Of a stretch of 8,509 bases of DNA, positions 1 to 8,509 are shown piece by piece. Location of the stretch: IMG/VR virus record IMGVR_UViG_2648501784_000014; one strand, written 5' to 3'. The notes below the pieces were generated by a model that had not been told where the DNA came from, searched no databases, and saw nothing but the letters and a program-made list of their open reading frames with translations. The stretch's first letter is position 1. Every line of letters starts with the position of its first letter. Origin of the DNA: a virus. Taxonomy: Monodnaviria > Loebvirae > Hofneiviricota > Faserviricetes > Tubulavirales. The position numbers and the translations under genes are program-made.

Positions 1-374
<374 letters not shown>

Positions 375-665
375 CGCAGCGGCCTTTTTATACATAACGT
401 CATTGTGCGCACTGAACCTTAAAGGATTTCAGTGTCCTTACTTAGTTTGTTGTGTATGGTCATCACCAACGGTAGGACAAGCGTTATCAGGCTGAATATT
501 GTCATGCCTGTGATGCTGCCAACAACAAAATGCTTTATCAGCAGGTCAAGAATTAAGTCACTGGTTGTCTGCATATTGCTTTTTAGCAATCATGTAATAC
601 TGCACTTTTGTACCACGGGTGGTACTTTTTGCTCTTCTAGCAATCGCCAAATCGTTTTGTGATTA

Positions 666-885: not shown

Positions 886-3002
<2,117 letters not shown>

Positions 3003-3032
3003 CTGAATTTTTAACATTGAGGAGTCTGATTT

Positions 3033-3458
3033 ATGAATCAAATTTATGACAGTTTTCCGTTTCCTTCCCCTGAGGGTTTTACTGCAGGTATGACAATGGC
3101 GGGATTTTTTATTCACGCCACTGTCATAAATGATGAGGAGTTAAAACCCACGGGTTCTCATTATAACCCTGAGGCTAAACCCAAATATGCCATTGTTATT
3201 GGCTATCCGTATGAGGACCGAAAATTAAAAGTCCGCCGTGAGGAGCATGAGCGATTTTCCTGTACTGAGGAGGATTTTAAATTTTTTAATTCATGTCCTG
3301 ATTTGCAGGGCAAACCTGTTTATCTCACGGTGGATGTTAACTCATGGTCGACAGGCTCTGAACGTCATGGTGTCTGGTATCGTTTTATTTCCGGCTCCAT
3401 GAAACGTTTTGACGGTCAGCCGCTGGGTGCACTGCCCGCAGGTAAAGAAAAAGGCTGA
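3033..3458 (+). CDS. Hypothetical 141-aa protein in the gene-V position; candidate ssDNA-binding protein
   Basis: ATG 3033 with GAGGAG Shine-Dalgarno (3019-3024) at 8-nt spacing, starting 30 bp after the rep stop. Hydrophilic with several beta-like segments (FFIHATVIN, KYAIVIGYPY, KPVYLTVDVNSWS, HGVWYRFISGS). Function assigned by synteny only; no similarity to M13 gVp seen. Confidence 0.7.
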   Translation: MNQIYDSFPFPSPEGFTAGMTMAGFFIHATVINDEELKPTGSHYNPEAKPKYAIVIGYPYEDRKLKVRREEHERFSCTEEDFKFFNSCPDLQGKPVYLTVDVNSWSTGSERHGVWYRFISGSMKRFDGQPLGALPAGKEKG

Positions 3459-3462
3459 TGAT

Positions 3463-3603
3463 ATGTCTGACGCTGATTTTCTGAACTTTGTTTTATTTGC
3501 TGCGCCTGCAATGATTTTATTTTCTTCAGGTTTTGGCATCGGAATAAAACTGATTCGCGCCTGTGACTCACAAAGCATTACTGTTCAGCGTTATTATGAC
3601 TGA
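3463..3603 (+). CDS. Small hydrophobic protein (46 aa); putative minor coat protein, pVII/pIX-like
   Basis: ATG 3463 lies 4 nt after the upstream stop. Sequence MSDADFLNFVLFAAPAMILFSSGFGIGIKLIRACDSQSITVQRYYD has one predicted membrane helix. Position matches gVII/gIX of Ff phages. Confidence 0.55.
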   Translation: MSDADFLNFVLFAAPAMILFSSGFGIGIKLIRACDSQSITVQRYYD

Positions 3604-3766
3604 ATTTGATTTCAGCGGTGTTTTATCCGCACTGAATTCTGGCGTACAGGACGGAGAACTTTACTGGGCCGTTCTGTATGTCTGGATTGTCTGCTGGCTT
3701 CTTGGCTTTGGCCTTGGTGTTATTTTCACTCTGGTCTGCCGGATGTTCAGCGATGCTGTTAATTAA
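3596..3766 (+). CDS. Small hydrophobic protein (56 aa); putative minor coat protein, pIX/pVII-like
   Basis: ATG 3596 overlaps the upstream ORF by 8 nt (ending at 3603), suggesting translational coupling. MTEFDFSGVLSALNSGVQDGELYWAVLYVWIVCWLLGFGLGVIFTLVCRMFSDAVN has one membrane helix. The alternative upstream start at 3563 is less likely. Confidence 0.5.
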   Translation: MTEFDFSGVLSALNSGVQDGELYWAVLYVWIVCWLLGFGLGVIFTLVCRMFSDAVN

Positions 3767-3772
3767 TTTTAA

Positions 3773-4033
<261 letters not shown>

Positions 4034-4048
4034 TAGTTATTTAACGAC

Positions 4049-4072
4049 AGCGTCCTTCGGGGCGCTTTTTTA
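4049..4072 (+). terminator. Rho-independent terminator after the major coat gene
   Basis: Stem AGCGTCC (4049-4055) / GGGCGCT (4060-4066) with one G-T wobble, TTCG tetraloop (4056-4059), then a T-run through 4071. Same position as the strong gene VIII terminator in Ff phages. Confidence 0.75.
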
Positions 4073-4075
4073 ATC

Positions 4076-5503
4076 ATGCCAGGAGTGTTTTGCTTGATTC
4101 GTTTTATTATTTCGCTTCTGTTTTTGTTCTTTTCTTCGCTTTCTTTTGCTGAGGAGAAAGAAGATCCGGATAAGCTTGTTCAGTGTTTTGGCCGTTTCCA
4201 CTGCAGAACAGCTTATTCAGATGCGGGGGCATCGATTAAATTAGCCAGGGGAGCTGGTCATATTTATTGTGGTTCCGGTAGTTACGATGCGTGCTCCGGA
4301 ATAATTCATTATTGCGGTAATAGGCTATCAGACTCGTCTCAAGCGCCTTCCACCGTTGGGGTTTTTGTCCATGCCCGGTGGTTCGCATATAAAGTCTGGG
4401 ATTTAGAGAAGCGAGAGTGGAGTACCTGCACTCTTCAATATCAGGGTGGTGAGGGGGATTTGACACCTGAATATAATAAGCCGCCAACTGACGAGATTTG
4501 TCTTTCTCGTCCGGTTCTTGATGGTATGACTTTTCCTGGTGTTTATAAAGGTGATGACGGGACCCGTTATGTTAATGTGCAGGGGTGTATTTATGAGGCA
4601 ACCGGCAATCCTTTTATTTGTAATCCCGATGATGATACGGTTTGTACTGCCAACTGGAAACCAGTTGCTGTAGATCCTGCATTCTCCGATGATAAGGAGG
4701 ATGGCGGTAGCTCAGGTGGCGGCAGTTCCGGTGGTGGTAACTCTGGCGGCGGTAGCTCAGGTGGTGGCAGTTCTGGCGGTGGTAGCTCAGGTGGCGGCAG
4801 TTCCGGTGGTGGTAACTCAGGCGGTGGTAGCATAGGTGGTGGCAGTTCTGGCGGTGGTAGCTCAGGTGGCGGCAGTTCCGGTGGTGGTAACTCAGGCGGT
4901 GGTAGCATAGGTGGTGGCAGTTCCGGTGGTGGTAACTCAGGCGGCGGCAGCTCAGGTGGTGGCAGTTCCGGTGGTGGTAACTCAGGCGGCGGCAGCTCAG
5001 GTGGTGGTAGTTCCGGTGGCGGTAGCTCAGGCGGTGGCAGTTCCTCCGGCGACGGCTGGCTTGGTGATATTCTTGGCTGGTTGCAGCGTATTTGGGTTTC
5101 AGTGAATGATTTAAATAATGCTTTTTCTGTTTCTCAGGATGATATTACCAGTGCGGTTAGTTCTTATGATTCACAGTTAAATGAATTAATTCATTCTGTA
5201 ACGCCTGAACAGGATGATATGTCTTCATTTGCTGACAGGCTTTTCAGCCTTCTTCCTGATGAGTGGCTTTATATTAATTTTGATAAATTACTTTTAACTG
5301 GTGAACTGCGTCGTTCTGGTGCTCAGCCAGTTCAGATTGAATTTCCGGGAATAAATGGGTTGTATTTTACAATTGACACATCTGATTTTGCTTCAGTTTA
5401 TGATGACATTATCAGGCCTTTATTAGAGTATGCTCTTTATGCATTAACGACTTTGCGTTGTTATTTTATTGTTCGTCGTGTTCTTTTTGTTGACAGGGGG
5501 TAA
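4076..5503 (+). CDS. gIII: Adsorption/minor coat protein pIII-like (475 aa from ATG 4076)
   Basis: N-terminal signal peptide, Cys-rich N-terminal domain, 116-aa Gly/Ser linker, and a C-terminal domain (PVQIEFPGINGLYFTIDTSDFASVYDDIIRPLLEYALYALTTLRCYFIV) resembling the M13 pIII C-terminus (recalled). ATG 4076 has no clear Shine-Dalgarno; in-frame TTG 4094 sits 8 nt after AGGAG (4081-4085) and is an alternative start. Confidence 0.8.
   Translation: MPGVFCLIRFIISLLFLFFSSLSFAEEKEDPDKLVQCFGRFHCRTAYSDAGASIKLARGAGHIYCGSGSYDACSGIIHYCGNRLSDSSQAPSTVGVFVHARWFAYKVWDLEKREWSTCTLQYQGGEGDLTPEYNKPPTDEICLSRPVLDGMTFPGVYKGDDGTRYVNVQGCIYEATGNPFICNPDDDTVCTANWKPVAVDPAFSDDKEDGGSSGGGSSGGGNSGGGSSGGGSSGGGSSGGGSSGGGNSGGGSIGGGSSGGGSSGGGSSGGGNSGGGSIGGGSSGGGNSGGGSSGGGSSGGGNSGGGSSGGGSSGGGSSGGGSSSGDGWLGDILGWLQRIWVSVNDLNNAFSVSQDDITSAVSSYDSQLNELIHSVTPEQDDMSSFADRLFSLLPDEWLYINFDKLLLTGELRRSGAQPVQIEFPGINGLYFTIDTSDFASVYDDIIRPLLEYALYALTTLRCYFIVRRVLFVDRG
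4703..5050. repeat. Tandem 15-nt periodic repeat encoding about 23 GGG(S/N)(S/I) pentapeptides (pIII linker)
   Basis: Near-identical GGT GGC GGC AGT TCC-type units; the peptide NSGGGSIGGGSSGGG occurs twice. The opposite strand reads as ELPPP repeats, which explains the spurious ORF at 4591-4908. Confidence 0.9.
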
Positions 5504-5505
5504 TA

Positions 5506-7076
<1,571 letters not shown>

Positions 7077-7157: not shown

Positions 7158-8509
<1,352 letters not shown>

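Follow-up and report, generated by a model that had tools for sequence, protein, structure and literature searches.

The open reading frame (ORF) at positions 3033 to 3458 of an inovirus sequence of 8,509 nucleotides (IMG/VR record IMGVR_UViG_2648501784_000014; this whole stretch is called the window below) probably encodes the gene-V equivalent of the phage, i.e., a cytoplasmic, single-stranded DNA (ssDNA)-binding protein with an OB fold that represents a small, divergent, new sequence family. The evidence for this assignment of the ORF, termed ORF141 here, comprises its location in the gene-V slot, purifying selection, an OB-fold prediction, structural neighbors of the SSB type, and local similarity to the profile of the Pfam family PF17426. 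A function is thereby proposed for a core gene labeled "hypothetical protein" in RefSeq and "unknown function" in PHROGs, which fills an annotation gap; the biology itself is expected and holds no surprise, as every inovirus needs such a protein.

The ORF141 gene and its slot downstream of Rep

The ORF of 141 amino acids (aa) and both peptide segments quoted for it in a preliminary description of this DNA were present in the ORF list and the sequence. The same 426-nt coding sequence occurs in Escherichia coli prophage copies, where RefSeq carries it as a hypothetical protein. The upstream ATG at position 3033 was favored as the start codon because the N-terminal residues D6, G15, and F16 are conserved in the family alignment. 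ORF141 is a real gene under purifying selection, with dN/dS values of 0.11 to 0.27 in comparisons with seven homologues sharing 38 to 97% amino acid identity.

A single complete inovirus genome with an overlap at its ends makes up the window; the unit length is 8135 bp because bases 1 to 300 recur identically at 8136 to 8435. Within this unit, ORF141 occupies the slot of gene V, 3′ of the gene for the replication initiator Rep and 5′ of small ORFs, the major coat gene, and a terminator-like hairpin; it shares this slot and the presumed role with the gene V protein (gVp) of the Ff phages (M13/f1/fd). As in Ff, where a strong terminator follows gVIII, the hairpin of the window closes the Rep-to-coat block. 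The gene-V position of inoviruses can be described as directly 3′ of Rep, 5′ of the coat genes, and kept in relatives, and all three features were found for ORF141. Conservation of the slot was judged in relatives whose contigs show the neighborhood. Specifically, the most distant family member (P0023, 22% identity) lies 3′ of a Phage_GPA Rep and is followed by Coat_B, pIII, DUF2523, and Zot, and the same gene order was seen at locus L028 and at a locus of Salmonella enterica diarizonae (L029). An ssDNA-binding gene elsewhere in the unit, named beforehand as an outcome that would contradict such a role for ORF141, was not found, as no other ORF of the 8135 bp matched a family of this kind.

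Rep and ORF141 diverge in parallel, with identities of 46, 43, and 35% for Rep and of 36, 36, and 22% for ORF141, and together they are the replication module of the window phage. This Rep is not of the Ff gII type; its closest relatives among isolated inoviruses are those of the Vibrio phages VFJ/fs2 and of the Shewanella phage Dolos. VFJ and Dolos have a gpA-type Rep like that of the window phage, and the gene-V slot of VFJ/fs2 and Dolos is taken by a 104-aa protein annotated as ssDNA binding (phrog_5738). The morphogenesis genes of the window match M13-type PHROGs, and in its replication and structural modules the genome has a mosaic appearance.

Over its full length, ORF141 matches phrog_30648. 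No Pfam family was matched above threshold, a phmmer search of the PDB with ORF141 returned noise only, and a tblastn search of 50,697 phage records gave nothing but chance matches to Staphylococcus terminases. The family is small, with 17 to 23 clusters among 5.8 billion proteins and nine representatives among 1.84 billion; a scan of IMG/VR yielded 22 loci, almost all of them close relatives, and a scan of the GTDB species genomes yielded the single S. enterica diarizonae locus. All named members examined in the clusters are E. coli hypothetical proteins, and several others come from metagenome assemblies. Membership in the Ypfphi YPO2275 family was considered and rejected, the clusters containing no Yersinia sequence. 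Residues F16, G24, F26, K51, V96, W105, and G113 are invariant in the alignment, and G15, P59, K64, C77, W115, Y116, R125, D127, and G128 are nearly so. Overall, 14% of the residues are aromatic, and conserved positions include Trp, Tyr, Phe, Lys, and Arg.

Predicted fold and relation to ssDNA-binding protein families

AlphaFold2, run on an alignment of 22 sequences, produced a model with a pLDDT of 83.2, a pTM of 0.72, and the topology β1-β2-β3-helix-β4-β5, with an additional short helix (residues 34 to 37) in the long β1-β2 loop. A usable model required the addition of members of 22 to 46% identity, which were obtained by an exhaustive representative search. The model has the SSB/PriB-type OB barrel, and the 13 best Foldseek matches in the PDB were all SSB or PriB chains, which also made up most of the 50 matches listed; matches in BFVD included phage SSBs, e.g., that of Thermus phage OH3. 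The structure prediction proposed in the preliminary description as a check for an OB fold thus returned that fold, with closest solved neighbors that are mostly ssDNA-binding proteins, and not a fold foreign to ssDNA binding. Residues 134 to 141 are predicted to be disordered.

Bacterial and mitochondrial members of the SSB/PriB group (PF00436 superfamily), the best structural neighbors, have the OB topology in common with ORF141. Both also have an aromatic residue in the β4-β5 hairpin, W88 in E. coli SSB and W105 in ORF141. This hairpin is presumed to be the DNA-binding wing of ORF141, and the binding surface likely consists of the hairpin (W105, W115/Y116) together with F26, K51, K64, and R125. 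In sequence, no match to PF00436 was obtained, and the hhalign probability against E. coli SSB was 0.1%. The acidic C-terminal tip of SSB (DDDIPF type) is not found in ORF141, whose tail ends in ...PAGKEKG.

The "Cys/acidic stretch" pointed out in the preliminary description is present and corresponds to the end of β3 and the model's single helix (residues 79 to 86), but it has no conserved Cys pair. C77 is nearly invariant, and C88 is lost in distant family members; ORF141 therefore has no conserved metal or disulfide pair.

The hairpin also accounts for a different set of database matches. A sequence profile search of the PDB hit aminopeptidase C (E value of 0.003, residues 67 to 131) and, more weakly, ficin and cruzipain, owing to the resemblance of VNSWSTGS..GVWY to the papain motif NSWG..G.WY. 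That ORF141 might be a degenerate papain-like peptidase domain is nevertheless hardly credible: the match is confined to the one hairpin, the Asn of NSW varies, the alignment has no conserved His partner, and no papain-fold structural neighbors were found. Papain family identity was rejected, and the motif VNSWSTGSERHGVWY (window positions 3336 to 3386, residues 102 to 118) was judged to be a coincidence of β-hairpin sequence.

With respect to the ssDNA-binding proteins of other inoviruses, the claim that ORF141 shows no similarity to M13 gVp held at the level of profiles: the hhalign probability was 0.3%, and PF02303 (Phage_DNA_bind) was not matched even at an E value of ≤10, while a 91-aa protein of a satellite-like element described below served as a positive control (2e-17). 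Ff gVp is a small β-barrel related to the OB fold. Structural resemblance of ORF141 to Ff gVp or to the Pf3 ssDNA-binding protein was not detected. Positional equivalents in other phages, namely, Pf1 g5p (144 aa), orf104 of fs2/VFJ, the Dolos SSB (phrog_5738), and VGJphi ORF112 (DUF1293), belong to other PHROG or Pfam families than ORF141. Profile alignments of ORF141 with M13 gVp, VGJphi ORF112, E. coli SSB, VFJ orf104, and Pf1 g5p gave noise (scores of 10 to 14), with probabilities of ≤0.6% for each of Pf1 g5p, fs2/VFJ orf104, and VGJphi ORF112. The description of ORF141 as unusually large is apt relative to Ff gVp (87 aa), UPphi gV (105 aa), orf104 of fs2/VFJ (104 aa), and VGJphi ORF112 (112 aa), but not relative to the Pf1 ssDNA-binding protein, which is annotated with 144 aa.

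The comparison with dif-integrating enterobacterial inoviruses, suggested at the outset, disclosed a nonrandom local profile match to the gene V family of UPphi, PF17426 (Putative_G5P). A UPphi-type prophage (L038) was retrieved with the published UPphi901 primer (PMC7307601), and the 105-aa ORF after its Phage_CRI Rep matched PF17426 with an E value of 8e-51. In the UPphi paper this ORF is gene V and is >85% identical to the Ypfphi gene (PMC7307601). UPphi and, as we infer, Ypfphi/CUS-1, all of them dif-integrating enterobacterial inoviruses, have PF17426 as their gene-V family. Among 14 close members of the ORF141 family, 11 match PF17426 weakly (best E value, 0.006). Alignment of the two family profiles with hhalign gave a score of 30.7, a probability of 56%, and an E value of 1.2e-4 over residues 89 to 121, a segment covering the β4-β5 hairpin. 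This score exceeded those of all controls, i.e., 200 column shuffles (11.6 ± 2.2; maximum, 17.9) and reversed profiles (about 10.7). A forced global alignment, which alone is not significant, is colinear, placing residues 20 to 128 onto the whole 105-aa protein and pairing the invariant G24 and F26 of ORF141 with the invariant G5 and F7 of PF17426. Since it maps these residues onto the entire shorter protein, the extra length of ORF141 corresponds to residues 1 to 19, a longer β1-β2 loop, and residues 129 to 141. Like ORF141, PF17426 proteins are encoded immediately 3′ of Rep in dif-integrating inoviruses of enterobacteria, and the profile alignments pair the G-x-F of β1 and match the hairpin GK.V.I.V.V..WS....GV.Y, whereas the two families differ in length (105 versus 141 aa) and in the Rep partner (Phage_CRI/G2P_X_C versus Phage_GPA). 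The PDB contains no relatives detectable with the PF17426 profile. As judged by these profile comparisons, remote homology of the two families is suggested, not proven.

Several observations weigh against the assignment of ORF141 as an ssDNA-binding protein. The protein as a whole is slightly acidic (pI of 6.1, with 17 Lys plus Arg versus 19 Asp plus Glu). Its own match to PF17426 reaches only 14 bits (E value of 0.057), below the gathering threshold of 25 bits, for which reason ORF141 is not filed as a member of that family; the match is absent in the five distant members tested (P0018 to P0023), and the profile alignment spans only 33 columns. The function of PF17426 is itself putative, and ssDNA binding by either family is a prediction from sequence. 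The alignment behind the structural model is shallow (22 sequences; Neff of about 3), and with the 14 close homologues only, AlphaFold2 gave a pLDDT of 36; the structure scores are modest. Finally, OB folds serve many functions, one of which is found in the B subunit of AB5 toxins, and ORF141 could in principle be a binding subunit of that kind, encoded by a cargo or virulence gene. We consider this very improbable: no signal peptide is present, the N terminus is acidic, Pro-rich, and variable or absent in relatives, and an A-subunit gene is missing. The ORF141 gene is also part of the replication-to-coat block, away from the accessory ends, adjoins Rep as a core gene wherever contigs of relatives show it, and has its profile match to a gene-V family.

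Proposed role and alternative functions

That ORF141 may be a divergent ssDNA-binding protein, as the preliminary description had put it, gains indirect support from the OB fold, the retained slot after Rep, and the local PF17426 match. Its ssDNA binding, cooperativity, oligomeric state, and a regulatory role, e.g., translational repression of Rep, are properties that we infer only. By analogy with Ff gVp, the g5p proteins of Pf1 and Pf3, VGJphi ORF112, and CTXphi RstB, the gpA-type Rep would nick the replicative form, and rolling-circle synthesis would displace plus strands. ORF141 would accumulate and coat these strands cooperatively, and this coating would keep them from becoming double-stranded again. 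The complex of protein and ssDNA would be passed to the pI/pIV export machine; there, the major coat protein would displace ORF141.

A more far-reaching idea, which we put forward as tentative and rather doubtful, is that ORF141 founds a distinct gene-V lineage tied to the P2-gpA-type Rep and that its N-terminal arm and tail, both specific to the family, provide a second job beyond ssDNA coating, either coupling to Rep at the origin or shaping a folded ssDNA attP (inverted dif-like sites at 320 to 413) for XerCD.

Because every characterized inovirus requires a coating function and no other ORF of the unit could provide it, we also think it unlikely that ORF141, rather than being the bulk ssDNA-coating protein, serves the gpA-type Rep or integration as an OB-fold accessory factor. 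Such a factor might be a PriB-like origin adaptor, in line with the presence of PriB among the best structural neighbors and with the covariation of ORF141 with a Rep type unusual for enterobacterial inoviruses; alternatively, it might be RstB-like and present a folded ssDNA attP to XerCD, as the phage has paired inverted dif-like sites and is located at dif. RstB of CTXphi is required for integration and also binds ssDNA. However, a phage variant that carries an IS110-family transposase gene and does not lie at dif retains the ORF141 gene, and RstB-type roles act via ssDNA binding as well, so that this alternative overlaps with the gene-V assignment.

With ORF141 as the gene-V equivalent, at least three pairs of Rep and binding protein occur in enterobacterial inoviruses, namely, Ff-type gII (Phage_CRI) with PF02303, Phage_CRI with PF17426, and Phage_GPA with the ORF141 family. 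The ssDNA-binding protein and its Rep are thereby shown to travel together as a module, and annotators gain a handle by which inovirus replication modules without a Pfam match become recognizable.

Genome features, integration sites, and a satellite-like element

The features of the window are compiled in the table. A megablast search found no isolated phage resembling the window. Related prophages were present in 338 of 5426 complete E. coli genomes, and six records from complete E. coli genomes matched at least 80% of the window with 89 to 98% identity.

Table. Coordinates of ORF141, its parts, and other features of the window
Feature	Position	Strand	Basis or comment
Repressor-like ORF, 62 aa	666-854	-	ORF list/profile matches
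Rep, replication initiator, P2-gpA-type HUH endonuclease	903-3002	+	Pfam Phage_GPA, 6.5e-49; phrog_91; RefSeq start at ~1002
Shine-Dalgarno sequence GAGGAG	3019-3024	+	8 nt before the ORF141 ATG, 17 nt past the Rep stop codon; read from the sequence
ORF141, predicted gene-V-type ssDNA-binding protein, family phrog_30648	3033-3458	+	141 aa plus stop; ATG start
N-terminal arm, residues 1-19	3033-3089	+	pLDDT of 71-78; absent from the 105-aa PF17426 proteins; global hhalign alignment starts at residue 20
Predicted OB-fold core, residues 20-128	3090-3416	+	β1 20-31, β2 52-62, β3 67-76, helix 79-86, β4 95-101, β5 from 116
β4-β5 hairpin (L45), residues 102-115	3336-3377	+	Invariant W105 and G113; near-invariant W115; tip (107-111) of low confidence
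C-terminal tail, residues 129-141, QPLGALPAGKEKG	3417-3455	+	Variable in alignment; pLDDT of <50 for 134-141
46-aa hydrophobic ORF, gVII-like position	3463-3603	+	Begins 5 nt past the ORF141 stop
67-aa hydrophobic ORF (56 aa in RefSeq), gIX-like position	3563-3766	+	ORF list, RefSeq
Major coat protein precursor, gVIII-like	3773-4033	+	ORF list/profile matches
Terminator-like GC hairpin AGCGTCCTTCGGGGCGCT, then TTTTT, directly 3′ of the major coat gene	4049-4066	+	Consensus match only
pIII, Gly/Ser repeats	4076-5503		
pVI	5506-5862		
pI/Zot	5865-7076		
pIV secretin	7188-8396		

Dif-like sites in inverted orientation were located at window positions 320 to 413, as AGTGCGCATAATGTGACACGCGTTATGTTGAAA (320 to 352, plus strand) and AGTGCGCACAATGACGTTATG (393 to 413, minus strand), and again from position 8455. 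A GC-rich hairpin with a T run lies between the two inverted sites, at about 353 to 390. By analogy, the 320-to-413 region looks like an attP of the CTXphi/Ypfphi style, which would form in folded ssDNA. The 28-nt E. coli dif sequence was absent from the window at up to three mismatches; only diverged dif-like half-sites were found.

In E. coli 700481, an array at positions 21382 to 44116 of the analyzed locus (L046, NZ_CM129038.1 598000-646000) is situated at dif, directly after hipA. It consists of two tandem window-like prophages followed by two tandem copies of a 3.56-kb element. Half-sites of dif mark its ends and junctions, with the XerC arm GGTGCGCATAA at 21382, AGTGCGCATAA at 29279, 37176, and 40731, and the XerD arm TTATGTTAAAT at 44106. 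The tandemly repeated element (37654 to 41213 and 41214 to 43772) is a satellite-like mini-inovirus with genes for a 62-aa repressor-like ORF, a Phage_CRI/G2P_X_C Rep (349 aa), an Ff-type gVp (PF02303, 91 aa, 2e-17), an 87-aa ORF, and a 201-aa helix-turn-helix protein. The 3.56 kb contain no coat, assembly, or morphogenesis genes; the element recalls RS1 or TLC beside CTXphi, and its packaging may require the window-like phage. Its own Rep/gVp pair fits the pattern of one Rep and one ssDNA-binding protein per replicon, and because the satellite brings a Phage_CRI Rep and a PF02303 gVp of its own, each replicon has a Rep and then its own small protein of the ssDNA-binding type.

A second arrangement was observed at L045 (NZ_AP022261.1 3174114-3188518), where a phage variant with 97% identity is located between hcxB and ybiB/dinG and not at dif. 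Directly upstream of Rep, an IS110-family transposase gene replaces the repressor and attP region, which suggests that the same phage backbone can integrate by a second route.

The pIII gene contains a long array of 15-nt repeats (window positions 4627 to 5106) that encodes GGGSS/GGGNS linkers. The repeat length varies among copies, with pIII comprising 385 aa in E. coli 700481, 469 aa in WP8-S18-ESBL-07, and 475 aa in the window.
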